In this document: positions 17,234 through 58,914 of the stretch, one piece after another
How the letters are laid out: each line of letters opens with the position of its first letter
Numbering within the stretch: position 1 is the stretch's first letter
Made by a program: the position numbers and the translations under genes
Source: Candidatus Nomurabacteria bacterium GW2011_GWE1_32_28
GTDB lineage: Bacteria; Patescibacteriota; Minisyncoccia; Phycocordibacterales; UBA9973
NCBI GenBank assembly: GCA_000989515.1
Contig: LBOM01000005.1
Coordinates: 2,709-66,708 of the forward strand
DNA length: 64,000 nucleotides
Reading direction: 5' to 3'
The notes under the pieces: generated by a model
Databases searched by the model: none
The model's input: only the letters and a program-made list of their open reading frames with translations
Told to the model about the DNA's origin: nothing

Positions 17234-20200
17234 ATGGATAAAGATATAAGTAAATCAGAAGCAGCGCTTCGAGAAGAGGCTGTTTTAGAATTTTGGAAAG
17301 AAAGTAAGATTTTTCAAAAGTCTCTAGAAAAAGAAGCACCAAAAGGTGAATTTATTTTTTATGAAGGTCCACCAACTGCAAATGGTAAACCTGGAATTCA
17401 TCATCTTGAAGCAAGAGCATTTAAAGATGCGATACCTAGATATAAAACAATGCGAGGGTATCATGTTCGCAGAAAAGGCGGATGGGATACACATGGTTTG
17501 CCTGTGGAGCTTCAGGTAGAAAAGAAACTAAATTTAGATTCAAAAATTGCAATTGAAAAATATGGAATTGCAAAGTTTAATCAAGGTTGCAAAGAAAGTG
17601 TTTGGGAATATACAGATCTTTGGAGTAAATTTACAGAACGTATTGGTTATTTTGTTGATCAAGAAAATGCTTATGTAACATATCATAATTCTTATATCGA
17701 GTCTGTCTGGGGTGTTCTTAAAAAAATAGATGAACAAAATTTACTTTATAAAGATTATAAAGTCGTACCTTGGTGTCCAAGATGTGGTACAGTTCTTTCT
17801 TCTCATGAGCTTGCTCAAGGATATGAAGATGTAAAAGATTTATCAGTGACAGTAAAATTTAAAATAAAAGGACAAGAAAATACTTATATTCTCGCTTGGA
17901 CGACGACACCTTGGACATTGCCTGGAAATGTTGCTTTGGCAGTAGGAGAGAAGATTGATTATGTAAAAGTTAGTTTAAATGGAGTTTTTTTAATTTTAGC
18001 AAAAGCACGTTTATCTATAATAGAAGGAGAATTTAAAATAATAGAAGAGATTAAAGGTAAAGACTTAATTGGATTAGAATATGAACCACTCTATCCTTTT
18101 TTAAAAGATACAATTTCTGAGAGCGAAAAACCTAAATTAAATAAAGCTTTTAAGATTTATGGAGCAGATTTTGTGACGACAGAAGATGGTACAGGTGTAG
18201 TACACACTGCTGTCATGTATGGACAAGATGATTTTGTATTGGGTACAGAGATTGGGTTACCAAAACATCATTTAGTTGGTCTTGATGGTGTCTTTTTAAA
18301 GGGTACAGGATTTCTAGAAGGTAGATTTGTTAAAGACGAAGAAGTTGCTATTGATATTATTAAAGATTTGGCGAATCGTTCAACTGATCCACTTTTATTT
18401 AAAAAAGAAAAATATGAGCACTCGTATCCTCATTGTTGGCGTTGTAAAACAGCTCTTATATATTATGCTCGTGACTCTTGGTATATCAAAATGTCTGATA
18501 AAAAAATAAAGGATAAAATGATACAAGAAAATAAAAGTATAAATTGGGAACCATCTCATATTCGTGATGGACGTTTTGGTGAATGGTTAAAAGATATTAA
18601 AGATTGGGCAATTTCTCGTGAACGTTATTGGGGGACACCTCTTCCTGTTTGGGAATGTGTTTCTTGTAAAAAAAGAGAAGTTCTTGGAAGTTTAGACGAA
18701 ATAAAAGAAAGAACAAAAAAATCTGGAAATAAATATTTTGTAATGAGACACGGTCAAGCAGAAAGTAATTTAAAAAATACAATAAGTTCTAAAGTTGAAG
18801 ATGTTGATCATTTAACTGAAAAAGGGAAAAAACAAGTTTTTGATTCTTTGTCTGAGTTAAAAAATAAAAAAATTGATTTTATAATCTCTTCTGATTTTAT
18901 GAGAACAAAAGAAACAGCAGAGATTATAAAAAAAGGACTAGGGATTTCTAATAATAATTTAATTTTTGATAAAAGAATTTGGGAATTATCTGCTGGGATA
19001 TTTGATGGTAATACATGGGATAATTTTTGGGAAGTCCGTGAGAACGGAGAAGGTTATTTTTACAAACCAGAGGGTGGTGAATCACACAAAGATCTCAAGT
19101 TGAGAGTTATTAGTTTTTTATATGATTTAGAAAAAAAATACAAAGATAAGAATATTTTAATCATAACTCATGAAGGACCAGCACGTCTTCTTATTGCTGG
19201 GTTAAAAGGTTTTAATGATATTAATACTATAGAATATTTAAAAGATAATATTGTAAAATTTGATAATGCTGAAATTAAAGAACTAGACTTTGTTTCTATT
19301 CCACATAATGAGAGTTATGAGCTTGATTTACATAGACCATATATTGATGATATAGAAATTGAATGTGAATGTGGTGGAGATCTAATAAGAACAAAAGAAG
19401 TCATGGATGTTTGGTTTGATTCTGGTGCGATGCCTTTTGCTCAAGATCATTATCCGTTTGAAAACAAAGAATGGGTAGATAAAAAAGGTTATCCTGCAGA
19501 TTTTATCTCTGAGGCAATAGATCAGACTCGTGGATGGTTTTATACATTACACGCTGTTGGTGTATTGATGGGACGTGGTAAGGCCTATAAAAACGTTATA
19601 TGTTTAGGTCATTTACTTGATTCAAAGGGTAAAAAGATGTCTAAATCTCTTGGTAACATTGTAGATCCTTGGTCTATGATCGAAAAATATGGAGTAGATA
19701 CATTGCGACTTTGGATGTATTCTGTAAATCAGCCTGGTGAATCAAAGAATTTTGATGAAAAAACCGTTATAGAACTTCATAGACAAGTTTTTGGTTTACT
19801 TTATAATGTTTTAGCTTTTTACGAACTTTATAGAGATATACAACTAGAAACTATTGAGTATAAAAAGTCAGAAAATATTTTAGATAAATGGATTTTAGCT
19901 AGACTTGATGAGTTAATAGATTTTACGACTAAACATCTAGATGATTATAAATTACTTGAACCGACTAGGGCGATAAGAGATTTTATTGGAGATCTTTCTA
20001 CCTGGTATTTGCGTCGCTCAAGAGATAGGATAAAAGATGGAGACAAAGAAGCAAAGCAGACCTTATATTTTGTTTTAAAAAATCTTTCAAAGATAATGGC
20101 ACCATTTACACCTTTTGCCGCTGATGATATATGGTTAAAACTTAAAAATGAAAAAGACATAGAAAGTATTCATTTAGCAGAATGGCCCAAATCATCAAAA

Positions 20201-20716
20201 ACAGTTTTTGATATTTTTAGTAATGGTAAAAATAAAATTTTAGAAGAAATGAAAAAAGTTCGTGAGATTGTTACATTAGGATTTGAAGCTCGACAAAAAG
20301 CAGGTATAAAGGTTCGTCAACCATTAGCGAAGATTCAAATCAAAAATCATACTCTTGATAAAGAGTATGATGAATTAATAAAAGATGAATTAAATATAAA
20401 AGAAATAAAAGAAAATAAAAATATTGAAAGAGGTGTTCTGCTTGATATAGAGATTACAGAAGAATTAAAAGAAGAAGGATGCTATCGTGAATTTGTAAGA
20501 AGCGTGCAGGATATGCGAAAAAATATTGGTCTTACTCCCAGCGATGTTATCTCTCTTTTTATTGAAACGAATGATAAAGGTAAAAAATTAATTCAAAAGT
20601 TTGAGATTGATTTACTTAAAGTAGTTCTAGCCTTAAAAGTAGAATTTAAAGAAAATGAAGGGGAATCTTTAGAGATTGATGAGTTAGTGTTTAAAATTCA
20701 AATAGAAAAAAGATAA
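17234..20716 (+). CDS. ileS: Isoleucyl-tRNA synthetase with an inserted ~195-aa histidine-phosphatase (PGAM/SixA-like) domain
   Basis: PTANGKPGIHHL (HIGH), WISRERYWGTPLP, KMSKS (KMSKSLGN), Zn-knuckle ECECGG; the insertion carries the RHGQAESN and ITHEGPARLL motifs. Confidence 0.9.
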   Translation: MDKDISKSEAALREEAVLEFWKESKIFQKSLEKEAPKGEFIFYEGPPTANGKPGIHHLEARAFKDAIPRYKTMRGYHVRRKGGWDTHGLPVELQVEKKLNLDSKIAIEKYGIAKFNQGCKESVWEYTDLWSKFTERIGYFVDQENAYVTYHNSYIESVWGVLKKIDEQNLLYKDYKVVPWCPRCGTVLSSHELAQGYEDVKDLSVTVKFKIKGQENTYILAWTTTPWTLPGNVALAVGEKIDYVKVSLNGVFLILAKARLSIIEGEFKIIEEIKGKDLIGLEYEPLYPFLKDTISESEKPKLNKAFKIYGADFVTTEDGTGVVHTAVMYGQDDFVLGTEIGLPKHHLVGLDGVFLKGTGFLEGRFVKDEEVAIDIIKDLANRSTDPLLFKKEKYEHSYPHCWRCKTALIYYARDSWYIKMSDKKIKDKMIQENKSINWEPSHIRDGRFGEWLKDIKDWAISRERYWGTPLPVWECVSCKKREVLGSLDEIKERTKKSGNKYFVMRHGQAESNLKNTISSKVEDVDHLTEKGKKQVFDSLSELKNKKIDFIISSDFMRTKETAEIIKKGLGISNNNLIFDKRIWELSAGIFDGNTWDNFWEVRENGEGYFYKPEGGESHKDLKLRVISFLYDLEKKYKDKNILIITHEGPARLLIAGLKGFNDINTIEYLKDNIVKFDNAEIKELDFVSIPHNESYELDLHRPYIDDIEIECECGGDLIRTKEVMDVWFDSGAMPFAQDHYPFENKEWVDKKGYPADFISEAIDQTRGWFYTLHAVGVLMGRGKAYKNVICLGHLLDSKGKKMSKSLGNIVDPWSMIEKYGVDTLRLWMYSVNQPGESKNFDEKTVIELHRQVFGLLYNVLAFYELYRDIQLETIEYKKSENILDKWILARLDELIDFTTKHLDDYKLLEPTRAIRDFIGDLSTWYLRRSRDRIKDGDKEAKQTLYFVLKNLSKIMAPFTPFAADDIWLKLKNEKDIESIHLAEWPKSSKTVFDIFSNGKNKILEEMKKVREIVTLGFEARQKAGIKVRQPLAKIQIKNHTLDKEYDELIKDELNIKEIKENKNIERGVLLDIEITEELKEEGCYREFVRSVQDMRKNIGLTPSDVISLFIETNDKGKKLIQKFEIDLLKVVLALKVEFKENEGESLEIDELVFKIQIEKR

Positions 20717-20800: not shown

Positions 20801-21277
20801 ATGTCCATTGTATTTGATATTTTAAAGGAATTAAACAATACGACGATTAATTATAAAGGAGGATGTGTTAGTTTGCTTGGGATACCAAAATTTTCTCATT
20901 ATAAATATGGTTCTCTTAAATCTGGGGTTAGTAAATTAAAGAAGAGACAATTAATTATAAAAGATGAATCCGGTTGGTTGTTAACCTCAAAGGGTAAAGA
21001 ATATATTTCCAAGAAACATGATTCTTTGGTTCAATTTGAGTCTCCGTTCAAAAAAAATGATTCTAAAAATTTACTTGTGATGTTTGATATTCCAGAAAAT
21101 AAAAAAGCAGAAAGGGAATGGCTTCGTTGGCATTTAAAGAAATTTAATTATGAAATGATTCAAAAAAGTGTTTGGCGGGGTCCTTCTCCTTTACCTAAAG
21201 AGTTTTTAAATTACATCAAAAAAATAAAAATTTATGATAATTTAAAAATGTTGAAAATATCAAAAATTATTAAATAA
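20801..21277 (+). CDS. Small winged-helix protein with C-terminal Cas2-like/PaaX-C-like fold (tentative PaaX-family-like regulator)
   Basis: N-terminal wHTH-like segment; C-terminal LLVMFDIPENKKAEREWLRWHLKKFNYEMIQKSVW follows the LxVxYD...R..L...L...G...QxSV pattern of Cas2/PaaX_C. Confidence 0.35.
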   Translation: MSIVFDILKELNNTTINYKGGCVSLLGIPKFSHYKYGSLKSGVSKLKKRQLIIKDESGWLLTSKGKEYISKKHDSLVQFESPFKKNDSKNLLVMFDIPENKKAEREWLRWHLKKFNYEMIQKSVWRGPSPLPKEFLNYIKKIKIYDNLKMLKISKIIK

Positions 21278-32262: not shown

Positions 32263-32357
32263 ATATTCTTATCTTACAGATTTTTAATAATATTTCTATA
32301 TTGACTTATTTATAATTTGTGATATTGTTTGGCTGGAATATTCTTTAATAAAAAAAG

Positions 32358-33770
32358 GTGGAAGAAATGAAAAAATTACTTGTTTTGTTTGTTTTGTTAG
32401 CTATTCCTATATCTGCACAGTTTCTTTATAATTTTGGACCTGATAGTCCAAACGTTTTGAAAAAAACAACAGGATTTGGTGGATCTCTTGCATGTGAAAT
32501 CAATATTACATGTGATAATGGTTTCCTTCCTGTTTCAGATGGGGTCTTCTGGTTTAATGGATGTACGGCTTTCTTTTTAGCAAACACATCAGGTGATGGG
32601 CGTTTGTTGTTTATGACAGTCAATCACGTTTTCCCATCGAATGTAGCAATAGGGGGGACGACAACAATAGCTATAAAATTTAATTATCAATCTTCTTCAT
32701 GTTCAAACCCAATAATTGAACCATCTGATGGAGTTTTTTCATTAAATTTAACAGTTAGATTGCTTGTAAGAACTTCTTATGATCAAGTTCTCTGTGAGAT
32801 TGTTGATGATGGGTCTTTGCCTCCAATGAATATTACATTACTTGGTTGGGATACTCGCTATACAAGAACATCGTCTATTGAGATGGCTTTTATGGGTCAC
32901 CCTCAAGCAGATATCAAGAAAATTGCATACCCGACAGTTACGGGGAGTAACTCTTGGAATACTTGGACTAAAGTAATAAAAGGCAATGGTACTGTTGAAG
33001 TAGGATATTCTGGGGCTCCATTGTTGGGAAAAGATGACGATGGGATTCGTGTATATGGATTAGCAAGTGCTGGTTCAGTATATGGATGTAATAGTGATGT
33101 ACAATCATATATTACAGCTAAAAATATAGGAGCTGATTGGAATTTATTAGCTCCTTATTTAGATCCATTAAATTCTAATGCATTGTTTTGTAGTGGGGAA
33201 CCAGCAGCTCTTCCAGTTGAATTGATATTTTTCTCAGCTTTTGTTGATGAAAATTTTGTTGAGTTAAATTGGAAAACAGCAACAGAAGTAAACAATTATG
33301 GATTTGAAGTAGAAAGAAAAACTTTAGATTCTGGTTGGGAGACTATTGGTTTTGTTGAAGGACATGGTAATAGTAATTCGCCCAAAGAATATTTATTTTT
33401 TGATGCAGATGTAACTAATGGTGTCTATTCATATAGATTAAAGCAAATTGATAACAATGGTAAATTTGAATATTCTTCTATCTTAGAAGTAATTATAAAA
33501 ATACCAATTAATTTTGTTTTTTCCCAAAACTATCCAAATCCTTTTAATCCAGAAACTGTAATTAGTTATCAACTTCCCATAGATGATTTTGTAAACTTAA
33601 AAATTTACGATATTGTCGGTAGGGAAGTTTCAGAATTAGTTAACGAAGAAAAAAAAGCTGGGATTTATCAAATTAGATTTGATGGTTCCAATTTGTCTAG
33701 TGGGGTTTATTTTTATAGAATTACCACTGGTGATTTTTCTAAAATTAAAAAAATGATTCTTATAAAATAA
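32358..33770 (+). CDS. Secreted trypsin-like (S1) serine protease with C-terminal T9SS-type (Por_Secre_tail) sorting domain
   Basis: Signal peptide MEEMKKLLVLFVLLAIPISAQF; His region TVNHVF, Ser region GYSGAPLLG; C-terminal NYPNPFNPETVISYQL...LKIYDIVGREV...GVYFYRITTGDFSKIKKMILIK is a textbook T9SS CTD. Confidence 0.55.
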   Translation: MEEMKKLLVLFVLLAIPISAQFLYNFGPDSPNVLKKTTGFGGSLACEINITCDNGFLPVSDGVFWFNGCTAFFLANTSGDGRLLFMTVNHVFPSNVAIGGTTTIAIKFNYQSSSCSNPIIEPSDGVFSLNLTVRLLVRTSYDQVLCEIVDDGSLPPMNITLLGWDTRYTRTSSIEMAFMGHPQADIKKIAYPTVTGSNSWNTWTKVIKGNGTVEVGYSGAPLLGKDDDGIRVYGLASAGSVYGCNSDVQSYITAKNIGADWNLLAPYLDPLNSNALFCSGEPAALPVELIFFSAFVDENFVELNWKTATEVNNYGFEVERKTLDSGWETIGFVEGHGNSNSPKEYLFFDADVTNGVYSYRLKQIDNNGKFEYSSILEVIIKIPINFVFSQNYPNPFNPETVISYQLPIDDFVNLKIYDIVGREVSELVNEEKKAGIYQIRFDGSNLSSGVYFYRITTGDFSKIKKMILIK

Positions 33771-33776
33771 TAAAAA

Positions 33777-33800
33777 CCCCCTTCGGAGGAAGGGGGTTTT
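33777..33800. terminator. Bidirectional terminator hairpin between the protease gene and recA
   Basis: CCCCCTTC-GGAG-GAAGGGGG followed by TTTT. Confidence 0.7.
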
Positions 33801-33810
33801 CTTATACCTT

Positions 33811-34851
33811 TTAAACTTCTTCTGTAAACTTTTTACGGATTTCTTTTAGTATCTGTTCAGCTATTTTTTTATTTTCCTTCAAGAATGTTCGAGTAGAATC
33901 ATAACCCACACCTAATTTCATCTTTTCTGCACCTGCGACACCCGATGTATAAAAATAAGAGTTACCAGCCTTTTCTACAATTTTAAATTTCTCGCCTAAT
34001 GCTATTATTTCACCTTCTTTAGATATTCCTTCATTGTAAATAATATCAAATTCTGTTTGTTTAAATGGTGCAGCGACTTTATTCTTTACTACTTTTACAC
34101 GAGTACGAGAGCCGACTATGTCTTCTCCTTTTTTAATCTGTGCTATTTTTCTTATATCAAGTCTTACAGAAGTATAGAATTTGAGTGCTTTTCCTCCTGT
34201 GGTTGTCTCAGGATTACCAAACATCACACCTATCTGCATTCTGATTTGATTTATGAATATTACGACAGTCTTACTTCTTGCTACGATGGCTGTGAGTTTA
34301 CGGAGTGCTTGAGACATTAGTCTTGCTTGTTTTCCTACATGATAAGCTCCCATGTCTCCCTCTATTTCATCTTTTGGTGTGAGTGCTGCTACAGAATCTA
34401 TCACTATCACATCGATTTTACCAGTTCGCACAAGACTCTCGACTATTTCAAGTGCTTGTTCTCCAGTGTCTGGTTGAGAGATGAGTAAGTTGTCGATATT
34501 TACTCCGAGTTTTTTAGTATAGTCAGGGTCCATCGCATGTTCAGCATCTATATATGCACATACTCCTCCGAGTTTTTGTGCTTCTGCTACTATATGTAAC
34601 GAGAGGGTAGTCTTTCCAGAAGATTCTGGTCCAAATATCTCAATGATTCTTCCACGAGGTATTCCTCCTACACCGAGTGCCATGTCGAGCCCGATAGATC
34701 CTGTTGGTATTGTGTTTACATCTACCTTTGGGGAGTCTCCTAGTTTCATGATAGATCCTTCTCCAAATTTTGCTTGGATGGCTTTTACTGTATCATTGAG
34801 TAACGATATTCCCATTGTTTTGTCTTCTTTTTTAATTTTTTTCTTTTGCAT
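33811..34851 (-). CDS. recA: Recombinase A
   Basis: GPESSGKTT Walker [23 protein letters not shown], 346 aa. Confidence 0.9.
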
Positions 34852-35513: not shown

Positions 35514-37775
35514 TTAATTGACTATGTTCTCTCCACTCTCTGTATGTTCTATTTTCTCCAAAACTTCTCTTGGTTTTGCACCATCACCAGCACTTATGAC
35601 TCCACGTTCTTGTAATGTATCCATCAGTCGTGCTGCACGAGCATATCCGAGTTTTAATTTTCTTTGAAGATATGACGTTGAAGCTTTTCCTGCTTCTATC
35701 ACACATTGTCTTGCTTCTTCATACATTTCATCTTCATCATCGTCTTTATCATCCAATGTACTTTCAAATATGCTTTTATCTGCAGAGATTGAACCACTAG
35801 TTAGTGATATTTCATCGGTTAATTCATCTTTGTATGCATCTACTAAATATTTAACAACTTTTTTAACTTCTGTTTCTGAAATAAATGCACTCTGTAGACG
35901 TTCTGGCTGAGCTTCTCCTGAGGAATATAGCATATCACCAGCTCCTAAGAGTTTCTCTGCCCCACCTGCATCGAGGATAGTACGCGAATCTATTTGTGAA
36001 GATACTTTGAGTGCCACGCGAGCAGGAATATTTGCTTTGATAAGTCCAGTAATGACATTTACTTCAGGGCGTTGCGTGGACAATATCAAATGTATTCCGA
36101 CAGCTCTAGACATTTGAGCTAGGCGGACGATTGCAGATTCTAGTTCTCTAGGGTAAGAGCTCATGATATCTGCTAATTCGTCTATGATGATGACTATATA
36201 AGGTAGGCGATCAGCATCTACTTCTGTTTTTGTTCCATCTTCGCCTGTCTTTGTTTTCTTTGGATTTTTACCAAATACATTAGTGTGGTAAGACTCTATA
36301 TCTCTCACAGATTCTGCTTCGAGTATATCATAACGGCGATCCATTTCTTTTGCTGCCCATTTTAATGCTAATATTGTCTTTTTTGCTTCAGTTATGACAG
36401 GGGTAAGTAGGTGTGGAATGTTGTTATAAAGAGTTAGCTCTACGCGTTTTGGATCTATCAAGATAAGTTTTAAATCATCTGGTCCATTTCTATATAATAG
36501 GGAAGTGATAATAGAATGTATTGTCACAGATTTTCCAGAGCCTGTAGTACCTGCGACAAGTGCATGTGGCATTTTTGCTAAGTTTCCAAACATAGCTTTT
36601 CCTGATATTCCTCGTCCTAGAGCTATGGTGAGAGGTTTTGGAGAATTTTGGAACTTACTATCTGAGAGAAGTGTTGCGAGGCCTACTATTGATTTTGATT
36701 TATTTGGGATCTCAATACCTACGAGAGATTTACCTGGGATAGGAGCTTCTATACGGATAGGGTGTGCAGCTAGAGAAAGTGCGAGGTCGTTTTGTAGACC
36801 GACTATGCGTGAGAGTTTTACACCTTCGGCTGGCTTCAATGCATAACGTGTGACGGTAGGTCCGACTGTTATCTCATCCATTTCGACTTCAATGCCGAAG
36901 TTTGCAAGTGTGCGTTTGATTATATTTGCATTTGCTTTTATGTCTCCAGTATTTGGCTTACCTTGATCTTCTTCGAGCAATGAGAGTGGGGGAGGGACAT
37001 AAGTAGAGACGAGGCCACCTTTTCTTTTTCTAATAGGCATCTCTTCTTCCTCTTCTTGTCCGTGTTTTATATCTAGAGCTTTTTTAATTTTCTCTACAGT
37101 AGAACTTTGTTCTTCTACTTCCTTTGTTGCTTTTTCTGAGGCAGGATTTTTGTCTATCATGTTTTCTTCTTTTTCGTTCAATGTGGAGACTGGTTGTTCT
37201 TTTTTTCTTGAAATCGATGCCCATAAATTTTTGAAAGTTAAAATGATGTTTAGCTTCACGTCAAACATCACTACGATAGATATCAATAGTAATGCACCGA
37301 GGAATATTATACTGGCATAGACATCAAATAAAGATACGAGGGGAGTCGAAAGAATTCTTCCCAAGAACCCTCCTCTATGTTCGAGAGAGACGACGTCTAT
37401 GATGCCGAGACTAGAGAGCAAAAACATGGTTCCACTCAATGCACGAGTGAGTCCGACATTTGGAGTTTCTGATTTCAAAAATGATGAGCCGAGTAATATA
37501 AAAAGAAGAGGGAGAAGTATGTATCCTATACCGAGTAAATAATTTAAAATTTCATAAATAAATTGACCAGCTACTCCAGCAATATCAAATATAGACATCA
37601 AAAGAAAAAGCGCTAAAACAAAAAATAAGATTGCCCAGATGCTGTGTATCGTTTCTGTTTTTAATTTGCTCATGGAATAAGAATTATTGTTGGAAGATTC
37701 TCTGTTGTTTTTCTGTTTATTATTTTTTGCCATATAGTACATTTTATCACTTTTTTTCATTTTAGTTAAATCCAC
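35514..37775 (-). CDS. ftsK: DNA translocase FtsK/SpoIIIE
   Basis: N-terminal 4 to 5 TM segments, linker, motor domain with Walker A GTTGSGKS and Walker B DELAD, C-terminal gamma wHTH. Confidence 0.85.
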   Translation of the reverse strand: MDLTKMKKSDKMYYMAKNNKQKNNRESSNNNSYSMSKLKTETIHSIWAILFFVLALFLLMSIFDIAGVAGQFIYEILNYLLGIGYILLPLLFILLGSSFLKSETPNVGLTRALSGTMFLLSSLGIIDVVSLEHRGGFLGRILSTPLVSLFDVYASIIFLGALLLISIVVMFDVKLNIILTFKNLWASISRKKEQPVSTLNEKEENMIDKNPASEKATKEVEEQSSTVEKIKKALDIKHGQEEEEEMPIRKRKGGLVSTYVPPPLSLLEEDQGKPNTGDIKANANIIKRTLANFGIEVEMDEITVGPTVTRYALKPAEGVKLSRIVGLQNDLALSLAAHPIRIEAPIPGKSLVGIEIPNKSKSIVGLATLLSDSKFQNSPKPLTIALGRGISGKAMFGNLAKMPHALVAGTTGSGKSVTIHSIITSLLYRNGPDDLKLILIDPKRVELTLYNNIPHLLTPVITEAKKTILALKWAAKEMDRRYDILEAESVRDIESYHTNVFGKNPKKTKTGEDGTKTEVDADRLPYIVIIIDELADIMSSYPRELESAIVRLAQMSRAVGIHLILSTQRPEVNVITGLIKANIPARVALKVSSQIDSRTILDAGGAEKLLGAGDMLYSSGEAQPERLQSAFISETEVKKVVKYLVDAYKDELTDEISLTSGSISADKSIFESTLDDKDDDEDEMYEEARQCVIEAGKASTSYLQRKLKLGYARAARLMDTLQERGVISAGDGAKPREVLEKIEHTESGENIVN

Positions 37776-44301: not shown

Positions 44302-44877
44302 TTGGTCGATACAAAATCTCTTTTTATATTTATACGCATTATTATAATAATTTCTAAAAATTTTATGGAAAATGAAAATAAAAACAATAAGGTTGTCTAT
44401 TATGTTATAGGTGTAGTTATCGTTGTTGTTTTAATTCTTTTAGTTGTTTTGAATATGCAAACTTCTAATGAAACAATTACTCCAAATACAGATGATGAGA
44501 CGGCACTCGAGTCTGATCTAACGGCTGAGGATATCACAAAAATCTCAGAAGATACTAGTGAGGGGAGTATAAATGTTGGTGCTAGTGTTTCTACGATTTC
44601 TTATGCAGATGCATTGATAAAATATGCAGACAAAAGAATTCAATTTGATACAGCATGTCAGACATTTCCAAATACTGTCACATATAAAGATAATACTGGT
44701 ATCATGCTTGACAATCGTTCATCAATATCTAGAACTATTAAAGTAGGAACCAATTACACAGTTAAACCTTGGAGTTTTAAAATTGTTGTTCTACCAAATA
44801 TTTATCTTCAATCAAAAACTATCCTAGTAGATTGTGATAAATCTCAAAACGTAGCAACCATTCTAGTCCAAGAATAA
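44302..44877 (+). CDS. Hypothetical secreted/membrane-anchored protein (probable start at M 44365)
   Basis: TM anchor VVYYVIGVVIVVVLILLVVL then about 130 aa soluble domain. Confidence 0.35.
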   Translation: MVDTKSLFIFIRIIIIISKNFMENENKNNKVVYYVIGVVIVVVLILLVVLNMQTSNETITPNTDDETALESDLTAEDITKISEDTSEGSINVGASVSTISYADALIKYADKRIQFDTACQTFPNTVTYKDNTGIMLDNRSSISRTIKVGTNYTVKPWSFKIVVLPNIYLQSKTILVDCDKSQNVATILVQE

Positions 44878-44885
44878 AATTTAAT

Positions 44886-45000
44886 AAATCTTATCGGGTG
44901 TTGGACACCCGACAGAAAGAAAGTTTTTTCAAAACACTCACAAAATGTGGGTGTTTTTTATTATATTATGAGATAATGAGTAAGTTGTATTTTTATAATT
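44886..45000. repeat. About 115-bp repeat unit A containing the REP-like palindrome TCGGGTGTTGGACACCCGA (44894-44912)
   Basis: About 85% identical to 45786-45900 in direct orientation; the palindrome recurs at 45086-45106 (inverted core), 45789-45815, 46137-46167 and 46636-46654. Confidence 0.75.
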
Positions 45001-45177
45001 TAATTTAAATATTTTTTTATACATTAAGTGTAAGGGGAATATTTTTTTACTAATGACGTATAGAAAAGTTCCACTTATATCTTCCGTCGGGTGTCCAACA
45101 CCCGACAGTTGAATAAATTTGAAGATTTTTTGTTGGTCTGTATACTTTTTTACTTTTTAAAAGTATATAATTAGATA

Positions 45178-45774
45178 ATGGATCAAAAACAACCATGGTT
45201 TATAAATTTGTTTTTAAATTTTAAAGGAAGACTTTTAATTATAGTTTTTATTACGATCTTTGTTACGTTAATTACAGTTATTCATTCTTTTGTATTGAGA
45301 TTAAATCCTTATTTAATCATAGAGTTAGTAATCACTGTTTCTTTTTTTGGTATGTATTTTTCTATTCCTCAATTGATTGCTACTCAAAAAAGTGAAAAAT
45401 TTAGAAAAAGATTATATCTTAAAAGTGGTAAAAAAATATTATCATTATTATCTTCGATTTCTTTCTATTTTATTTTATGTATTTTAATTGTTTTTTTATT
45501 TGGTATGGTTCTTGCTACTATATTTACTTCATCTGACAATGGAGAAATTTGGGCTTATTCTCTTTTTGGTTCTGGTTTATATGTTTTTATCTTTTGGTTA
45601 GCTTCTTTCTTAGTTGGTGTAATTTCTTTATTATTAAATTCTAATAAATCGGAAATTGTAATAGTTCAGGAAAGAACTCCTGTTAAAGTTTATTTTTCAT
45701 CTATTATTTTTATTTTTTTATCCGTACTTGTATTATTCTTTGTATTTATATTTACTGTAGAAAATTATTTATAA
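45178..45774 (+). CDS. Hypothetical polytopic membrane protein (198 aa) lying between the two 115-bp direct repeats
   Basis: 4 to 5 predicted TM helices, no motifs. Confidence 0.35.
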   Translation: MDQKQPWFINLFLNFKGRLLIIVFITIFVTLITVIHSFVLRLNPYLIIELVITVSFFGMYFSIPQLIATQKSEKFRKRLYLKSGKKILSLLSSISFYFILCILIVFLFGMVLATIFTSSDNGEIWAYSLFGSGLYVFIFWLASFLVGVISLLLNSNKSEIVIVQERTPVKVYFSSIIFIFLSVLVLFFVFIFTVENYL

Positions 45775-45785
45775 TTTTACTTTAT

Positions 45786-45900
45786 TATCTTGTCGGGTGT
45801 TGGACACCCGACAAGATAAGGAGTTTTTATAAAACACTCATATTTTACGGGTGTTTTATTTTGTGTTATGAGATAATAGTTATGGTTGTATTTATAATTT
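45786..45900. repeat. About 115-bp repeat unit B containing the extended palindrome CTTGTCGGGTGTTGGACACCCGACAAG
   Basis: Direct repeat of unit A. Confidence 0.75.
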
Positions 45901-45962
45901 TATTTTAATAAAGATTTTTAAAAGATTTCCAGTTATTGGATTTCTGTAGATCTTAATTTTTT

Positions 45963-46622
45963 ATGAGAAAAAATCCTCTTGTAACTAATCAGTATTATCA
46001 TATTTATAATAGAGGAGTCGATAAAAGAGATATTTTTATGAATAAATCTGATTTAGATAGATTTATTTTGAGTGTAAAGGAATTTAATATAGTTAAACCT
46101 ATAGGTAGTATTAAAGAGCGATTAATAGAATTAAAAGCCCCGTCGGGTGTTGGACACCCGACGGGGCTTGTTTCTATTGTCTGTTATTGTTTTAATCCAA
46201 ATCATTTTCATTTTATTTTAAAACAAGAAGTAGATGGTGGAATTTCAGAATTTTTTAAGCGTTTACTTGGTGGATATACAAATTATTTTAATTTAATACA
46301 CAAGAGAAATGGGGCATTATTTCAAGGAAGATTTAAGTCTAATTTGGTTGACGATGAAGAATATTTTTTAAAAATTCGTCCTTATGTGCATTTAAATTAT
46401 TTAGTACATGATATTCCAAAAGAAAAAAAGTATTTAATATCATCAAGCAAGAAAGAATATGATACTAATAAATTTACTATTGTTTCAAAAAAAGAAGCAA
46501 AAGAACTTTTGGATTTTTATAATGGTAATCTAAATTATAAAAAAGAATGCTTAGATGTAATTTCTTTTATTCGAGAAGAAAGAGGATTAACTTCTTTGTT
46601 TGAAGAAGAATTATTACCATAA
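45963..46622 (+). CDS. HuH-family Y1 (IS200-like / REP-associated tyrosine transposase, RAYT-like) protein; possibly degenerate
   Basis: YYHIYNRGVDKRDIF N-terminal strand, HuH motif NPNHFHFIL, C-terminal GALFQGRFKS...DDEEY...YVHLNYLVHD resembling RAYT LWQRGFYDH...YIHFNPV; a 31-bp perfect palindrome (46137-46167) lies in frame inside the gene. Confidence 0.5.
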   Translation: MRKNPLVTNQYYHIYNRGVDKRDIFMNKSDLDRFILSVKEFNIVKPIGSIKERLIELKAPSGVGHPTGLVSIVCYCFNPNHFHFILKQEVDGGISEFFKRLLGGYTNYFNLIHKRNGALFQGRFKSNLVDDEEYFLKIRPYVHLNYLVHDIPKEKKYLISSSKKEYDTNKFTIVSKKEAKELLDFYNGNLNYKKECLDVISFIREERGLTSLFEEELLP

Positions 46623-46723
46623 AAATTATCCCTTATCGGGTGTTGGACACCCGAAATGGAAAGTTATACACCTTTTTGCTTTATTTTTGTTGTGTAATGT
46701 TTTCATTAGCATATACTTGAACA

Positions 46724-47374
46724 ATGGATAAAATAAAAATATTTTTTGGTGCTCACAAAATTTTGAAAATATTTATGTGGGCTTTTTTAATTCTACTTGG
46801 ATTGTATATTATTTTGGTTGCTTTTCGTGTTGTTAATCTTTTTAATTTAGATAAGACAAATGCACAAGTAGAAAAGATTCATAATACAAAACTTTCTATA
46901 GATGATGTGATGGGTGTAAATCTTCCTTCTGATCCTGGTGTTGAAGCTGATAAAACTGTGCAAGGTATCGATGCTAATGAAAATGGTATTCGTGATGATG
47001 TGGAGATAGCTATATTTAAAGAATATCCCAATTCTGCAAAAACTCGCGCAGTCCTTTTGCAGTATGCTTTAGCTTTGCAGATGGAAGTAATTCAACCTAT
47101 TGAGAATACAGTTACTGTGACAGAAATTATAACAGAACAAAGCAGGGCAGATACTTGTGTTGCCGATACTCTTGTACCCAGAGAAAGTCCTGAATCTTCA
47201 AGACATTATTCTGATGTGGAAAAAATTAACACTTTTATTAAATCTATTGAAGGTAAACAATTTAATACAGAGGTAAGAAAATCAAATCATCAAAATTTTA
47301 TGAAAAATCTTAGAAGTTTTGGAGAATCAACTAATGAAATTTGTGACATAGATATTTTGAAGTTAACAGATTAA
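46724..47374 (+). CDS. Hypothetical membrane-anchored protein (216 aa)
   Basis: N-terminal TM FMWAFLILLGLYIILVAF; acidic soluble domain. Confidence 0.3.
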   Translation: MDKIKIFFGAHKILKIFMWAFLILLGLYIILVAFRVVNLFNLDKTNAQVEKIHNTKLSIDDVMGVNLPSDPGVEADKTVQGIDANENGIRDDVEIAIFKEYPNSAKTRAVLLQYALALQMEVIQPIENTVTVTEIITEQSRADTCVADTLVPRESPESSRHYSDVEKINTFIKSIEGKQFNTEVRKSNHQNFMKNLRSFGESTNEICDIDILKLTD

Positions 47375-47391
47375 AGTTTTTAATTTTTTAT

Positions 47392-48030
47392 ATGAAAAAT
47401 AGAATATTGTTTATTTTTATCTTGATCTCATTATTTTCATTAAGTTCTAGGGTTTTTGCAAGTGGATTATGTTCTCAGAATGGCTACACTATCGCAACTA
47501 TTAATGGAATATTTACTAATGAAGATGGTGCAAAAGAAAATAGAAATAATTTAAAAAAAGGTTTACCTCTAACTTATAACAACCAACCACTTACAGTAGA
47601 CTATCTATATAACCCAACGCATCTTGCTGGGCTAGGTGATGTTTTTGATGCTATTGCACAGGGGGCTTTCTTTCAAAGATCGGACTATGACCTTACAGAA
47701 ATGCTAAATGATGCAAGTCAGAAGATTGGAACCCAGAAACTTCTTTTAGTGGGTCATTCTCAAGGTAATTTTTATACAAATAATTTTTATGACAAAGTTT
47801 CATCACGTCCTGGTGGGATTCCTGGGAGATCTATCAGTGTGTATGGTGTAGCAAGCCCAGCGGGTTATGTGGATGGTGGAGGAAAATATTTAACTTCAAA
47901 TACAGATGAGGTTATAAATTTTGTTAGAGAAAAAAATACAATTGATGTCTTATCACCCAATATTCATATACCGTTGCAAGCAAGTGATGGCAATGGGCAT
48001 AGTTTCTCAGATGTATATTTGAAATACTAG
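47392..48030 (+). CDS. Secreted alpha/beta-hydrolase (lipase/esterase-like) domain protein; probably the N-terminal part of a fusion with the downstream adhesin ORF
   Basis: Signal peptide MKNRILFIFILISLFSLSSRVFA; nucleophile elbow LLLVGHSQGNFY (GxSxG). Confidence 0.5.
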   Translation: MKNRILFIFILISLFSLSSRVFASGLCSQNGYTIATINGIFTNEDGAKENRNNLKKGLPLTYNNQPLTVDYLYNPTHLAGLGDVFDAIAQGAFFQRSDYDLTEMLNDASQKIGTQKLLLVGHSQGNFYTNNFYDKVSSRPGGIPGRSISVYGVASPAGYVDGGGKYLTSNTDEVINFVREKNTIDVLSPNIHIPLQASDGNGHSFSDVYLKY

Positions 48031-48060: not shown

Positions 48061-51039
48061 TTGCTAAATAATTTAAAAGAAAATGATGAACAGGAAATAG
48101 GGGAGCCTTGTATTTCTCCACCAGAACTTTCTTTACTTCATAAAGTTCAGGGTGTTTTGTTTGCTGTAGCTGACCCGACTGCAGGAGTAGTGAAAGTCGG
48201 ATTAATTAGTTCTTATAATGCAGGTTCTTATATCGCTGATGGTGTGCATAATGCTGGATTAGCAGTAGGAAACGGGATACATGATACTAGCTTAAAAATA
48301 AATAATATGGTTTCAGGATTGTTGGCAAATGCTATTGGAAGTTTGCCTGATGCTGGTGTTATAGCTGCTGTTCCTTTTGGTGTATTAGATTCTGAAAATA
48401 TAGAAGCTGGGGCGGAGGAATTGCCTCCGCCTGCTTCGTCTGTAGAGAAAGAGACCGTCCTTCCACAAGAGATACCTGAGATAAAAGATGAAGTAACTAT
48501 TCCTACTGAACCTGAACCTATTTTAGTTGAGCCAGTTCCTGAAAAAGAAGAAGTTGTGGATGTTGTACCAGAGAAGATTGATCCTATCGTATCTAATACC
48601 ACATATTATGGTGGAGGTGGCGGAAGTAGTACACCTACAGATATAGTTGCTCCAGTTATTACAATTCTTGGAAATAATCCTGAGACAATTACAAAAGATT
48701 CTATTTATCTTGATGCAGGTGCGACAGCTTTGGACGATGTTGATGGTGTGATAGAAGTAGTTGTCACTGGTGTTGTGGATATTAGTGTCGTTGGTGTTTA
48801 TATTATTACTTATACTGCGACAGATCTTTCTAATAATATTGCGACAATGATACGTACTATCAACGTTGTTTTGCCTCCACCCCCACCACTTGCTACTTTT
48901 ACAATTGACTCTGATACTACATTAGTTGCTGGTGAATATAATTATGATAATTTAATTATTACAAATAATGCGGTACTTACCTTAGATAGCAATCGTGATT
49001 CACTAGACCCATTTAAGGGTGTAAAAATAAATGCAGTAAATATAACTATTGAAAATGGTTCATCTATTTCTGCTCAAAGTAAAGGATACGCGAATGGTCC
49101 AGGAACTTATGCAGAGAATAGTCCTGGTGCGAGTTATGGTGGAACAGGTGATAAAAATATTTCAACATCGATATATGGTAGTGCGACCAAGCCTATTGAT
49201 TTAGGTAGTGGGGGATATAATTATTTTCGTGATGGTGGAGCTATTCGTCTTGTCGTCACAGATACTCTCATAAATAATGGTATTGTTTCTTCGAATGGAG
49301 ATAGTACATCGAGTGGTGGAAGTATTTATGTAACAACAAAAAATTTGACTGGAAGTGGTTCATTTAGTGCAAATGGTGGAGGATTATACTCTACTTCCGT
49401 TATTCACGGTTCTGGTAGTGGAGGTAGAATTGCTATATATTATGAAGTTAATTCTTTTTCTGGAATAGTAGAAGCAAAAGGTGGATGTGGAAGTTATGAT
49501 GGATATTCTAGAACTTGTGCGATGGATGGAACAGTTGGATATTTTGATACAATAAATAATGATCTTTCTGTATATAATTCATGGCAATTTTTAAAAGTAG
49601 ATAGTCCATTTAATTATAATAAAATTATTTTAACAAATGGTTCGACAATAAGATCAGAAAAAGAAGTTAATATAACAGCAGACGATCTTCTTTTAGATAA
49701 GATTTCTAATTTTACATTAAACGAAGATCAGATTATAAATATTTCGTCAATTAGGTTAAATGAAAATTCTAGATTAACACTTTCTGGAAGTGAAATGATA
49801 ACTGCTGACAATTTAATTATTAGTGGCAATTCTGATGTCACTATAGTTATAGAGAAAATATTTTCTTTAACTATTCCGAACATTAATATTGAAAGTGGAT
49901 CTTCTATTTCAGCTGATACAAAAGGGTATTTTGGTGGTCCGGGTGCTCCTTTGGTATACAGGGCTGGTGCAAGCTATGGAGGAGCAGGCGAGGGAAGCGA
50001 TGATGCATTAACTTATGGTTCAGTTTTGGAACCTGTAGATTTTGGAAGTGGTGGAAATGGTGATCTACGTGGTGGTGGAGCTATTCGTCTTGTCGTCACA
50101 GATACTTTCATAAACAATGGTATTGTTTCTTCAAATGGAAACAGCACATCGAGTGGTGGAAGTATATATATAACAGTAAAGAATTTATCTGGAAGTGGAA
50201 AATTTAGTGCAAACGGAGGAGGGCTTTATTCTTCTTCTGTTATATTTGGTTCTGGTGGAGGTGGTAGAAATGCAATTTATTATGAGAGTAATCTTTTTAC
50301 TGGAACAGTGGAAGCAAAAGGTGGATGTGGAAGTTATGATGGATATTCTAGAGTCTGTGCAAAAGATGGAACAGTAAAAATGATTGATACTACAAAGAGT
50401 TCAGTAAAACAAATTACGACATTTGATTTTATGAGTTTGACACCAAACGTTGTTGGAATGATTGATGAAGTTAATCATGCTGTTTCTCTAACTGTTCCTT
50501 TTGGTACTGCTGTGACAGCTCTCGTCTCAACTATTACAATTTCAGAAAAAGCGATAATTAGTCCAGATACTAATGTAGCTCAAGATTTTACAAATGCTGT
50601 TACTTACACAGTGACTGCAGAGAATGGTTCTACTCAGGATTATATTGTCACAGTTTTGGTCGCTTCTGATCCAAATCCTCTACCTGATGATACGATACCT
50701 TCAATATTAAGCTCTTCATTAAATGGAATTGCTAGTGATGTGGCGACCAATCCTGTCGTAGACCTTGTTTCTATTGCTTTTATTGCAAATGAAAATGTAG
50801 ATTGGGTTTCTATAAAAATTGAGAAAGAAGACGATGAAACTGTTTACAAATATTTTTATCCAGGGATTGATTGTGATGGGCAGGATGCTTGTACTAAATC
50901 ATGGAATGGTTTATTAGCGGGAGATTCAATAGCACCAATCGGTGTATATAAGATAAGGGTTCGTATTCGAGATCTGATTAGCCTAGAAGAATATGATTTT
51001 TCCCATTTATATAAAATTACAGTAGATACTTCTCTATAA
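48061..51039 (+). CDS. Large surface adhesin-like protein with bacterial Ig-like (DUF5011-type) domain and tandemly duplicated beta-rich about 330-aa domains; same frame as the upstream lipase ORF, separated only by one TAG
   Basis: VITILGNNPETITKDSIYLDAGATALDDVDGVIEVVVTG...YIITYTATDLSNN Ig-like motif; internal duplication GGAIRLVVTDT(L/F)INNGIVSSNG...EAKGGCGSYDGYSR; no signal peptide, TTG start. Confidence 0.5.
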   Translation: MLNNLKENDEQEIGEPCISPPELSLLHKVQGVLFAVADPTAGVVKVGLISSYNAGSYIADGVHNAGLAVGNGIHDTSLKINNMVSGLLANAIGSLPDAGVIAAVPFGVLDSENIEAGAEELPPPASSVEKETVLPQEIPEIKDEVTIPTEPEPILVEPVPEKEEVVDVVPEKIDPIVSNTTYYGGGGGSSTPTDIVAPVITILGNNPETITKDSIYLDAGATALDDVDGVIEVVVTGVVDISVVGVYIITYTATDLSNNIATMIRTINVVLPPPPPLATFTIDSDTTLVAGEYNYDNLIITNNAVLTLDSNRDSLDPFKGVKINAVNITIENGSSISAQSKGYANGPGTYAENSPGASYGGTGDKNISTSIYGSATKPIDLGSGGYNYFRDGGAIRLVVTDTLINNGIVSSNGDSTSSGGSIYVTTKNLTGSGSFSANGGGLYSTSVIHGSGSGGRIAIYYEVNSFSGIVEAKGGCGSYDGYSRTCAMDGTVGYFDTINNDLSVYNSWQFLKVDSPFNYNKIILTNGSTIRSEKEVNITADDLLLDKISNFTLNEDQIINISSIRLNENSRLTLSGSEMITADNLIISGNSDVTIVIEKIFSLTIPNINIESGSSISADTKGYFGGPGAPLVYRAGASYGGAGEGSDDALTYGSVLEPVDFGSGGNGDLRGGGAIRLVVTDTFINNGIVSSNGNSTSSGGSIYITVKNLSGSGKFSANGGGLYSSSVIFGSGGGGRNAIYYESNLFTGTVEAKGGCGSYDGYSRVCAKDGTVKMIDTTKSSVKQITTFDFMSLTPNVVGMIDEVNHAVSLTVPFGTAVTALVSTITISEKAIISPDTNVAQDFTNAVTYTVTAENGSTQDYIVTVLVASDPNPLPDDTIPSILSSSLNGIASDVATNPVVDLVSIAFIANENVDWVSIKIEKEDDETVYKYFYPGIDCDGQDACTKSWNGLLAGDSIAPIGVYKIRVRIRDLISLEEYDFSHLYKITVDTSL

Positions 51040-54181: not shown

Positions 54182-55082
54182 TAAATACTTTATAGAAATA
54201 GAAAAAAGATGTCCACACTTTCCCCATTGGGGCTTAGGTTGACATCTTTTTTCGTTTAATATATACTCTTTCAATCAGTATGATTACATTAAGAAACAAG
54301 TTTAAAAGGCGGTTTTAAGCAGACTTTCTTTTGTCTGTTGACCGCTTAAAAAGCGGTTTTTTATTTGGTAAGTATGGCTTGAAAATTGACAACTTAAATC
54401 CTATCCTAGTATTCTTGGACAACTTGCAAAAGTGTGTCCGGCATGCAGCCTGTATGCTTAGGGTCTTTTCAAAGCTAGAGATAGGAAATTGTTTAAATAA
54501 TTTTGAATGCCGAGCGGTCGGACTAGATTTTATTATAAGCATTGTTTTATCCTTATGTAATGTAAGGATTGTGATTTATAAATTTCTTAACAGGAAATTT
54601 AAGGGCGTATGGTGGATGCCTTGACTTTAAGAGGCGATGAAGGACGTGGCGTTGCTGCGATAAGCTTCGGGGAGGTGCTTAGCTACCTTTGATCCGGAGA
54701 TTTCCGAATGGGGAAACCCTATCAAGTAAACCTTGATAACTTTTATCTTTATGATAAAAGAGCATACCCTGGGAAGTGAAACATCTCAGTACCAGGAGGA
54801 ATAGAGACAAATATGTATTTCCTTAGTAGCGGCGAGCGAAAAGGAAGAAGCCCAAACCGTTCTCGCAAGAGGGCGGGGTTGTAAGATGACAATGTAGTTT
54901 ACTAGGAGAGTTAAAAAATAAATTATTAGTTGAAGTTGCTGGAAAGCGACACCGTAGGGGGTGATAGTCCCGTAAACGAAAATAATTTATCTCTTTTATT
55001 GTTATTCTTGAGTACCCCAGGACATGAATGGCCGGGGGGAATCTAGCGGAACTAACCGCTAAGGCTAAATACTCTTAAAGAT

Positions 55083-55119
<37 letters not shown>

Positions 55120-56640
55120 CAGCCCGATTAGGGCGGTGAAATAGACCTGAAACCATATGTCTACAAGGAGTCGGAGCAGGTATTTATATCTGCAACGGCG
55201 TGCCTATTGAAGAATGAGCCAACGAGTTTATTCATACTGCAAGGCTAAGCTGGCTAAAACAGCAGAGCCGAAGGGAAACCGAGTGTTAATAGCGCGAATG
55301 AGTAGTATGCATAAGACCCGAAGCCAGGTGAGCTTGCCATGAGCAGGTTGAAGTTTGTCGAAAGACAAATGGAGGACCGAACCGGTAGATCGTACAACGT
55401 CTTCGGATGACTTGTGGTAAGGAGTGAAAAGCTAATCGAACCTGGTAATAGCTGGTTCTCTCCGAAATAGCTTTAGGGCTAGCGTCACTGGAAGGTTTCG
55501 ACAGGGAGCAATCTCGCGAAACCTATCAAACTCCGAATACCAGAAACCATAGCTTGGCAGTTAGGCCATGGGGGCGAAGCTCCATTGGCCAAAAGGGAAA
55601 CAGCCCAGATCTCAAAATAAGGTCCCTAAATTTATGCTAAGTGTAAGATAAGAAGGTGGAATTTCTCTGACAATGAGGAGGTTGGCTTAGAAGCAGCCAT
55701 CCTTTAAAGATAGCGTAACAGCTCACTCATCTAGAGATTTTGCGTCGACATAGTACCGAATTTGAGGATTTCGTTTTTCTTCGGAAGAACGGAGTGGTAG
55801 GAGAGTGTTCCAATCTGCTGTGAAGTAGGACTCGTGAGAGCCTATGGAGCGTTTGGAAGTAAGAATGTTGGCACAAGTAACCGCAATGAGGGTGAGATCC
55901 CCTCACGTCGAAAGATCAAGGTTTCCTTGGTAATGTCAATCAGCCAAGGGTTAGTCGGGCCTAAGGGAATGGAGAAATCCGTACTCGATGGACATAGGGT
56001 TAATATTCCCTGACTTCTGTATTTTGTGATGGGACGACGGAGTGTAGTATGTATTGCTCATTATTGGATTTGAAGTTTGTTTACTAAAGATGAGGTGTAG
56101 GAAAATCCGCACACTGCTTTCAATGGCAAATCTAAGGTAAATGAAAAGTCTTAAGCCTCGGTTTAGGACAATAATACAAAGCACGCTTCCAAGAAAAATC
56201 TCTAAACTTAAAAATATAGAATCCGTACCGCAAACCGACACAGGTGATCAGGTCGAGTAGACCAAGACGAACGAGTGAGTGGTCCCCAAGGAACTCGGCA
56301 AAAAAGCAGCCGTAACTTCGGGATAAGGCTTGCCCCCACCACTTTGGATATTTCTAAATATTTGAGAGTGTTGGGAGAGTAAGATTTAAGTATCGAGCAA
56401 AAAGAGACAATGAGGAATTAAATTAAAGCTCTTCATCATTTTTTATTTCACAGAATTTTTTTGTGAAGTATCTAAAGTGGTGGGGGCCGCAGCGAAAGTT
56501 TCTCTGGCAACTGTTTACCAAAAACACAGCTCCCTGCGAACTCGTAAGAGGATGTATAGGGGGTGACACCTGACCAATGCCAGAAGGTCAAATATCGGCG
56601 GTGTATGTCGCAAGATGTATGCAGACTGATATAAGCCCTG

Positions 56641-56683
<43 letters not shown>

Positions 56684-58790: not shown

Positions 58791-58914
<124 letters not shown>

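Follow-up and report, generated by a model that had tools for sequence, protein, structure and literature searches.

The 64,000-nucleotide stretch of DNA analysed here (hereafter the window; positions 2,709 to 66,708 of contig LBOM01000005.1 of Candidatus Nomurabacteria bacterium GW2011_GWE1_32_28) contains a gene for a serine protease that carries, at its C-terminus, the sorting domain of type IX secretion system (T9SS) cargo proteins. Such tags are usually treated as diagnostic of bacteria of the Fibrobacteres-Chlorobi-Bacteroidetes (FCB) group and of T9SS-dependent export, and the organism in question belongs to the candidate phyla radiation (CPR). From the evidence set out below, we consider it probable that this is a T9SS cargo gene of FCB bacteria which was laterally transferred and has settled both in CPR bacteria and in archaea of the DPANN group (Diapherotrites, Parvarchaeota, Aenigmarchaeota, Nanoarchaeota as well as Nanohaloarchaeota), where its C-terminal modules would be kept for a role other than type IX secretion. 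The protein itself is of a known kind, a T9SS-cargo-type protease resembling Achromobacter protease I (API); what makes it notable is the place in which it is found, and its orphaned but conserved sorting tag.

The open reading frame (ORF) occupies 32358..33770 on the plus strand and encodes 470 amino acids from its GTG codon in the ORF list of the window; residue numbers throughout refer to this form. All of the strings quoted in a preliminary description of this DNA (TVNHVF, GYSGAPLL, NYPNPFNP, LKIYDIVGREV and GVYFYRITTGDFSKIKKMILIK) are present in it, and the T9SS C-terminal domain (CTD) proposed there is genuine and of type A: residues 392–467 exceed the curated cut-offs of both PF18962 (Por_Secre_tail; 45.2 bits, cut-off 27) and TIGR04183 (46.2 bits, cut-off 23), and the match ends three residues short of the stop codon. 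At the other end of the protein stands a signal peptide, judged by inspection. The AlphaFold2 (AF2) model, with a mean predicted local distance difference test (pLDDT) score of 86.5, consists of a beta-rich protease domain and two C-terminal beta-sandwiches. The second sandwich, with about seven strands between residues 387 and 468 and pLDDT values above 90, corresponds to the CTD, and CTDs are described as immunoglobulin (Ig)-like seven-stranded 3+4 beta-sandwiches (PMC11285876).

The first of the two sandwiches, which we call the mid module (residues 285–390), matches nothing in Pfam or NCBIfam even when E values up to 10 are allowed. A locally built hidden Markov model (HMM) scores it at 150.6 bits, its characteristic motif is LPVEL...NNYGFEVER...YRLKQID, and it is all-beta in the AF2 model (pLDDT ~90). 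Foldseek returned tandem fibronectin type III (FN3)/Ig matches for the C-terminal part of the protein, PorU among them, and a search of PDB sequences with the mid module and CTD together gave no significant match. Thousands of FCB proteins have the mid module ahead of a CTD, and it was at the extreme C-terminus that the combined module was found in 133 of 134 cases; in the window, no other ORF has either part. More than 100 FCB cargo proteins with no other relation to it have extreme C-termini that share 57–63% identity with the pair (186 amino acids), against only 46–57% for the corresponding modules of the protein's own protease relatives, a ranking to be read with care, since the list compared was biased to the best C-terminal matches. 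The best of these matches, P0133, is located among other Por_Secre_tail genes. That context, together with the similarity to the C-termini of unrelated cargo, marks the pair, as far as sequence comparison goes, as a shuffled and near-consensus tail of Ignavibacteria-type T9SS cargo.

The S1 (chymotrypsin-fold) serine protease of the preliminary description is likewise borne out, and can be specified as API-like rather than generically trypsin-like. A protease-domain profile built from eight family members matched API (1arb) among PDB sequences at E = 2.4e-24, over residues 2–263 of 268 and thus over the whole mature enzyme, and the same N-terminal-domain profile matched Lysobacter lysyl endopeptidase (4nsy, 4nsv) at E ~6e-23. 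In the AF2 model, pLDDT is mostly above 90 in this domain, for which Foldseek found chymotrypsin-fold proteases at target-normalised TM-scores of 0.5–0.6. The Pfam family Trypsin_2 (PF13365) scored 15.6 bits, under its gathering cut-off of 27.6, and the S1 homology therefore rests on the family profile against the PDB and on Foldseek. The API triad His57, Asp113 and Ser194 aligns to His90, Asp142 and Ser218, and in an alignment of 98 sequences the triad is invariant in the 12 original members of the small subfamily to which the protein belongs (the compact subfamily) and in 85/85 FCB relatives. Two of the three API disulfides are kept, 6–216 as Cys46/Cys244 and 12–80 as Cys52/Cys115; the third, 36–58, is lost, with Val at position 58, and this pair is conserved in 84/85 FCB relatives.

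The residue of API that we take to be the S1-pocket determinant of lysine specificity, Asp225, corresponds here to Ile252. By the 98-sequence multiple alignment, as distinct from a structural superposition, Asp occupies this position in 76 of the 85 FCB relatives, and the 12 original subfamily members all have V, A or I there; in the five compact members that joined the set later, the residue is Y, L, V, A or G. An HMMER pairwise alignment had given Gln249 as the equivalent residue, an assignment overturned by the larger alignment in favour of Ile252. The protease domain starts at about residue 42, whereas in FCB relatives, which carry a pro-region of ~170–200 amino acids, it starts at about residues 165–200; here only ~20 disordered residues take the place of that region. 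With Asp225 and the Cys36–Cys58 disulfide lost and the pro-region missing, the protein is, on these sequence features, best named API-like and not lysyl endopeptidase, and its cleavage, given the Ile in place of Asp225, is probably not Lys-specific. One member of the compact subfamily that keeps the mid module and CTD, P0265, has its catalytic His changed to Ser and its catalytic Ser to Ile, and is probably an inactive pseudo-protease. No locus is assigned to P0265.

The CPR character that the preliminary description gave to the genome is confirmed by the window content, which is of CPR type, and by the annotation of an identical protein in Candidatus Nomurabacteria GW2011 bins; Nomurabacteria are placed in the Parcubacteria group of Patescibacteria. 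Independent assemblies have yielded 24 contigs with this identical protein, the longest reaching 410 kb (18 of them at 50–200 kb and five at 0.2–1 Mb), and all 24 have the same gene order: S6-SSB-S18, EF-P (efp), the protease gene, RecA and FtsK. A comparison of codon usage with neighbouring genes, which had been proposed as a check, gave no anomaly: the gene is typical of the window in GC (z = +0.48), GC3 (z = +0.06) and synonymous-codon score (z = +0.03, rank 25 of 49 window ORFs). The shared neighbourhood and typical codon usage establish that the gene is a settled resident of a CPR genome, and contamination and recent arrival are both rejected; the lack of a codon-usage anomaly means that the transfer is old, or its traces ameliorated. 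Since the C-terminal half is most similar to Ignavibacteria and Bacteroidetes proteins, one might think of an FCB gene wrongly joined or binned with CPR sequence. This explanation is effectively refuted by the 24 contigs, by the core genes on both sides of the protease gene, by its window-typical composition, by a terminator that it has in common with recA, and by the independent occurrence of homologues in Komeilibacteria and Pacearchaeota contigs.

No T9SS component (PorK/L/M/N, SprA/Sov, PorV, PorU) or outer-membrane component was found among ~40 window proteins scanned against Pfam, or among the precomputed Pfam hits of the immediate neighbours of the gene, in agreement with what had been noted from the sequence alone. 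The window encodes type IV pilus PilB/PilC, pseudopilins, ComEC, a giant peptidoglycan-binding protein and a minimal glycolysis, and nothing in its 64 kb points to an organism of the FCB group. As the inspection covered only 64 kb, and the contig has a length of at least 410 kb, an outer membrane or a T9SS-like apparatus could be encoded outside the window. We find this hardly credible: T9SS genes are reported only from FCB phyla and as absent from archaea (PMC11285876), CPR cells described so far are monoderm (PMC8871954, citing Luef 2015), and the gene family is kept also in archaea, in which a bacterial outer-membrane system is implausible.

To size the protease-domain family, 1.84 billion representative proteins were searched exhaustively with HMMER; this yielded 7,511 relatives bounded by a sharp score gap; a word-indexed search with the N-terminal profile gave only six matches. 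Only ~6–11 clusters at 50% identity among the 7,511 have the compact form, and the subfamily comprises roughly a dozen sequence clusters. At least 532 loci in named genomes encode relatives, with 27–33% identity, and the best 80 of these are nearly all from Bacteroidota, Chlorobi or Marinimicrobia; no relatives were found in viral contigs. Four proteins that had only the C-terminal modules in common with the true homologues (P0006, P0010, P0011 and P0013) were removed from the full-length alignment. Neighbour-joining trees were rooted on API and bootstrapped 300 times. The compact subfamily is a clade in 299–300 of 300 bootstraps, and in 279 of 300 at least two FCB clades enclose it; its sisters are Saprospiraceae sequences. 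A horizontally acquired cargo gene had been one of the possibilities raised at the outset, with a phylogeny of the protease domain as its check; both this nesting and the likeness of the C-terminal module to FCB cargo speak for it. From these comparisons, acquisition of an FCB cargo gene by an old transfer is supported, and the direction from FCB bacteria to CPR and DPANN is well supported. The reverse, in which a compact protease born in CPR or DPANN was then passed to FCB bacteria, might draw on the poorly resolved branching within the subfamily; it is very unlikely in view of the API-rooted nesting, of the thousands of functionally unrelated FCB proteins that have the mid module and CTD, and of the established use of this pair only where a T9SS exists.

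The compact subfamily is found in T9SS-rich FCB-type bacteria, in CPR bacteria (Nomurabacteria and Komeilibacteria) and in DPANN archaea (Pacearchaeota). The members P0008, P0134, P0135 and P0136 lie in contexts rich in CarboxypepD_reg TonB receptors, with several neighbouring Por_Secre_tail genes; gene order is conserved on these FCB-type diderm contigs, and takes in a BBE oxidase and a GFO_IDH gene. P0267, whose contig carries MlaE, is a further member placed with this group. Two lineages of Komeilibacteria carry the compact form. The NCBI version of one of these proteins, P0007 (L003 9533–10966), has 402 amino acids and an apparently miscalled start, its stop-to-stop ORF extending upstream to include a signal peptide and the conserved GFGxSLxC N-terminus.

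The full-length homologues of highest identity are P0002, encoded on contig L001 from Pacearchaeota, and P0003, both at 47% over the aligned full length; a near-identical cluster mate of P0003, P0121, is located on the archaeal contig L086. These two archaeal contigs are mutually syntenic and contain RpoD and RpoN above curated cut-offs, with matches to L21e and archaeal S11 below theirs; the best named matches of their RpoD are from Pacearchaeota and Nanoarchaeota, at 59–68% identity. In both (L001 10001–19352 and L086 2698–7650) the protease gene is set in the same neighbourhood of small ORFs without a Pfam match, with the RpoD-S11(-S4-S13) cluster a few kb away, and this shared neighbourhood suggests vertical inheritance of the gene within a Pacearchaeota-type lineage. 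In L001 a gene for a PEGA-domain protein follows immediately downstream.

Identity among CPR and DPANN members is 59% in the mid module, 55% in the CTD and 43% in the protease domain, and the CTD motifs are all intact. Selection was examined in one Pacearchaeota gene pair (L086 versus L087; 84% amino-acid identity, synonymous divergence, dS, ~0.33), in which the ratio of nonsynonymous to synonymous divergence (dN/dS) is 0.25 for the CTD (bootstrap 95% 0.12–0.47), 0.27 for the protease domain (0.17–0.41) and 0.32 for the mid module (0.13–0.96). The dS of the mid module, 0.15, is under half that of the flanking domains (0.36–0.47), which could reflect nucleotide-level constraint or recent gene conversion. 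By these measures, the tag is not decaying, and the CTD is constrained in the archaeal pair. They also bear on the idea that the FN3-like module and the CTD are neutral passengers, undecayed leftovers of a protein in which only the signal peptide and the protease matter. Such an origin would suit the lack of any T9SS to read the tag, as indicated by the literature and the window survey, and a C-terminal module still near the consensus of the FCB pool is what one expects soon after transfer. However, the codon usage is fully ameliorated, the CTD has a dN/dS equal to that of the protease domain, and its motifs are intact in modules that are better conserved than the protease domains to which they are attached; we therefore regard passive retention as unlikely.

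The reading that we prefer, of a transferred FCB cargo gene retained with its C-terminal modules, can be stated as a sequence of steps. A T9SS cargo gene of FCB-group bacteria, probably Ignavibacteria-like, would have been passed on laterally and become a settled gene in Nomurabacteria, Komeilibacteria and Pacearchaeota. The signal peptide would lead the product by Sec export across the only membrane, outside which the triad, present with all three residues, would cleave extracellular proteins, probably with a specificity other than for Lys, as the alignment of Ile252 with Asp225 indicates. A T9SS step would be neither needed nor possible, and the FN3-like module and CTD, conserved as they are, would stay on the protein for a T9SS-independent role, most likely in cell-surface holding, adhesion or protein stabilisation. 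The compact protease P0266 (L091 611–1591) ends in a transmembrane helix and a basic tail, not in the mid module and CTD, and this membrane anchor fits a surface-holding role of the C-terminal modules, although it is only a hint. Contig L091 otherwise shows tiny ORFs without a Pfam match and an RNA ligase.

The preliminary description had also raised the use of the CTD by a different export route. With the CTD under purifying selection in a host that has no T9SS, another use of the CTD is conceivable. The CTD could still be a targeting signal, read by an export or anchoring route of the CPR and DPANN organisms or by the T9SS of a host; in the latter version, the protease released by an episymbiont would use its Ignavibacteria-type CTD to dock on the surface of an FCB host cell, at the PorV/PorU attachment machinery. 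The purifying selection seen where no T9SS exists and a module unusually close to the FCB consensus are both consistent with this; CTD recognition is described as species-specific (PMC11285876), so that a donor-type sequence could matter, and CPR and DPANN organisms are described as episymbionts (PMC7906910). Nevertheless, nothing indicates that the partners of these particular organisms are FCB bacteria, CTD recognition normally begins in the periplasm, no candidate receptor gene is located near the protease gene in any context examined, and the idea is entirely inferential, so that we hold it to be decidedly unlikely. The more general proposition that the CTD and its FN3-like partner form a working signal without a T9SS of their own, re-used for surface anchoring or host adhesion or for docking on the T9SS of an FCB host, seems to us quite unlikely. 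If true, a tag for secretion would have crossed between domains of life and gained a new reader.

Several points weigh against a transferred cargo gene whose tag has been kept for a new purpose. The T9SS-independent role of the C-terminal modules is a conjecture, and the selection test is a single pair, archaeal rather than from Nomurabacteria. The trees are neighbour-joining trees on ~274 columns at ~30% identity; branching within the compact subfamily is poorly resolved, with CPR and DPANN sequences grouping in 200 of 300 bootstraps, and this grouping dissolved once P0267, from a contig carrying MlaE, was added, so that the number and routes of transfers are uncertain. The sequence examined is a 64-kb part of the genome, and the absence of a T9SS beyond it rests on taxonomy and literature. 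The signal peptide was recognised by inspection.

The features of the gene and its surroundings are listed in Table 1. The ORF of the preliminary description is real, but its GTG boundary is probably not the true start: GTG 32358 falls within the AGGTGGA ribosome-binding site, and the ATG at 32367, 4 nt downstream of that site, therefore probably begins the real product, the 467-amino-acid NCBI protein P0001, which is 100% identical to the ATG-start form. An exact database look-up of the 470-amino-acid protein gave no match, the recorded form being the ATG version. An N-terminus equivalent to the signal peptide is present in all family members. In the AF2 model, residues 17–41 have pLDDT below 50; they end in ..VLKK, which directly precedes the equivalent of the mature N-terminus of API, as the alignment to residue 2 of the mature enzyme begins at about residue 42. 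Upstream of the gene, the promoter-like site is weak evidence because such sites are rarer in the region than in shuffled sequence.

Table 1. Features of the protease gene and its immediate surroundings (window coordinates; residue numbers from the GTG at 32358)
Feature	Position	Strand	Evidence
Promoter-like TTGACT, 16-nt spacer, TG-extended TATTGT	32301..32328	+	Consensus scan only; weak evidence
Shine-Dalgarno-like AGGTGGA	32356..32362	+	Read from sequence
Probable true coding sequence, 467 aa plus stop	32367..33770	+	ATG start, NCBI match
Sec-type signal peptide MKKLLVLFVLLAIPISAQ, aa 4-21	32367..32420	+	Inspection; AF2 helix 5-14, then disorder
Short disordered linker or mini-propeptide, aa 22-41, ending ..VLKK	32421..32480	+	pLDDT, alignment to API
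API-like S1 serine-protease domain, aa 42-280	32481..33197	+	Profile, alignment, AF2, Foldseek
Catalytic His90	32625-32627	+	Alignment with API
Catalytic Asp142	32781-32783	+	Alignment with API
Catalytic Ser218	33009-33011	+	Alignment with API
FN3/Ig-like beta-sandwich (mid module, without a family name), aa 285-390	33210..33527	+	Local HMM, AF2, Foldseek
T9SS type-A C-terminal sorting domain, aa 392-470	33531..33767	+	PF18962, TIGR04183, AF2
Bidirectional intrinsic-terminator hairpin common to the gene and convergent recA	33772..33801	.	13-pair stem, T-runs on both strands
recA, convergent neighbour	33811-34851	-	Window ORF

The convergent recA and the ftsK gene beyond it (35514–37775, minus strand) stand out among the window ORFs, with synonymous-codon usage further from the norm than in any other and with the highest GC3 (ranks 1 and 2 of 49). 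Strand bias may account for this, because both genes are on the minus strand and the GC skew of the window is uniformly positive.

The 23S rRNA gene (54589–58700) is interrupted, a trait that counts towards the CPR-typical content of the window. Its body stops at about 57352, near model position 2651, and a fragment of the large-subunit rRNA resumes at 58516–58644, ahead of the 5S rRNA at 58796–58901; the default Rfam call had given a complete 23S rRNA of 2819 nt. The insertion of ~1.16 kb holds a LAGLIDADG endonuclease ORF (57868–58359) and gives a weak signal for a group I intron, which at 27 bits is below threshold.

Elsewhere in the window, a 1160-amino-acid class I tRNA-synthetase ORF (17234–20716, plus strand), which we read as IleRS-like, has a His_Phos_1 histidine-phosphatase domain (residues 502–661, E = 1e-26) inserted between the two halves of its catalytic domain. 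It is followed by a solitary Cas2-like/PaaX_M protein of 158 amino acids (20801–21277, plus strand), beside which no further CRISPR-associated genes were found among the window ORFs scanned. Five ORFs of ~200 amino acids each form a run at 44302–48030 (plus strand); four of the five have no Pfam match, several have low GC (0.22–0.30), and one ORF, 45963–46622, matches an IS200-like Y1 transposase marginally. The 992-amino-acid protein encoded at 48061–51039 (plus strand) matches DUF5018 and Bact_surface_Ig-like, presumably surface-protein domains associated with Bacteroides, and its gene is perhaps another surface gene that this CPR genome derived from FCB bacteria.

A search of the literature on T9SS CTDs in CPR or DPANN organisms found no paper; in databases, this protein and a homologue from Komeilibacteria already bear a CTD label. 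For annotation, our results mean that a T9SS cannot be deduced from the label 'T9SS type A sorting domain-containing protein'. For evolution, they mean that FCB bacteria, CPR and DPANN have a secreted enzyme family in common. They also raise the testable question of what the CTD fold does without its secretion system, and point to proteolysis outside the cell by organisms that are thought to rely on others for their amino acids.

Among the closest known enzymes are API (1arb) and Lysobacter lysyl endopeptidase, of MEROPS family S1, to which homology extends over the mature enzyme, with the triad and two of three disulfides kept. In contrast to API, with which the identity is only 26%, the protein has Ile for Asp225 and lacks a long propeptide, and the C-terminal extension is a different one, composed of the FN3-like module and the T9SS CTD. 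A protease of this type with a CTD is known from Bacteroidota, in which CTD-bearing lysyl endopeptidases are T9SS cargo: NdpD of Tannerella forsythia, homologous to PepK of Porphyromonas gingivalis, is released by wild-type cells and not by a porK mutant (PMC4175972). PepK and NdpD combine a signal peptide, an S1 protease of API type and, at the C-terminus, a T9SS CTD, a general layout shared by the FCB relatives, the link to the present protein coming from that study and from common API homology rather than from direct sequence comparison. Unlike those enzymes, ours belongs to a host without a T9SS or an outer membrane, is missing the pro-region of ~170–200 amino acids, has an FN3-like module inserted ahead of the CTD, and has lost both Asp225 and the Cys36–Cys58 disulfide.

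The C-terminal module itself has its counterpart in the Ignavibacteria-type cargo proteins P0133 and P0012, with 63% identity over 186 amino acids, although proteins of that type have unrelated N-terminal domains and are encoded in T9SS-rich genomes. As for the transfer, lateral gene transfer between CPR bacteria and DPANN archaea is described, with RuBisCO as an example (PMC6389311). There, likewise, one family spans two ultra-small groundwater-associated radiations and two domains of life, whereas here the family is that of a secreted enzyme whose sorting tag belongs to a secretion system absent from both recipients.

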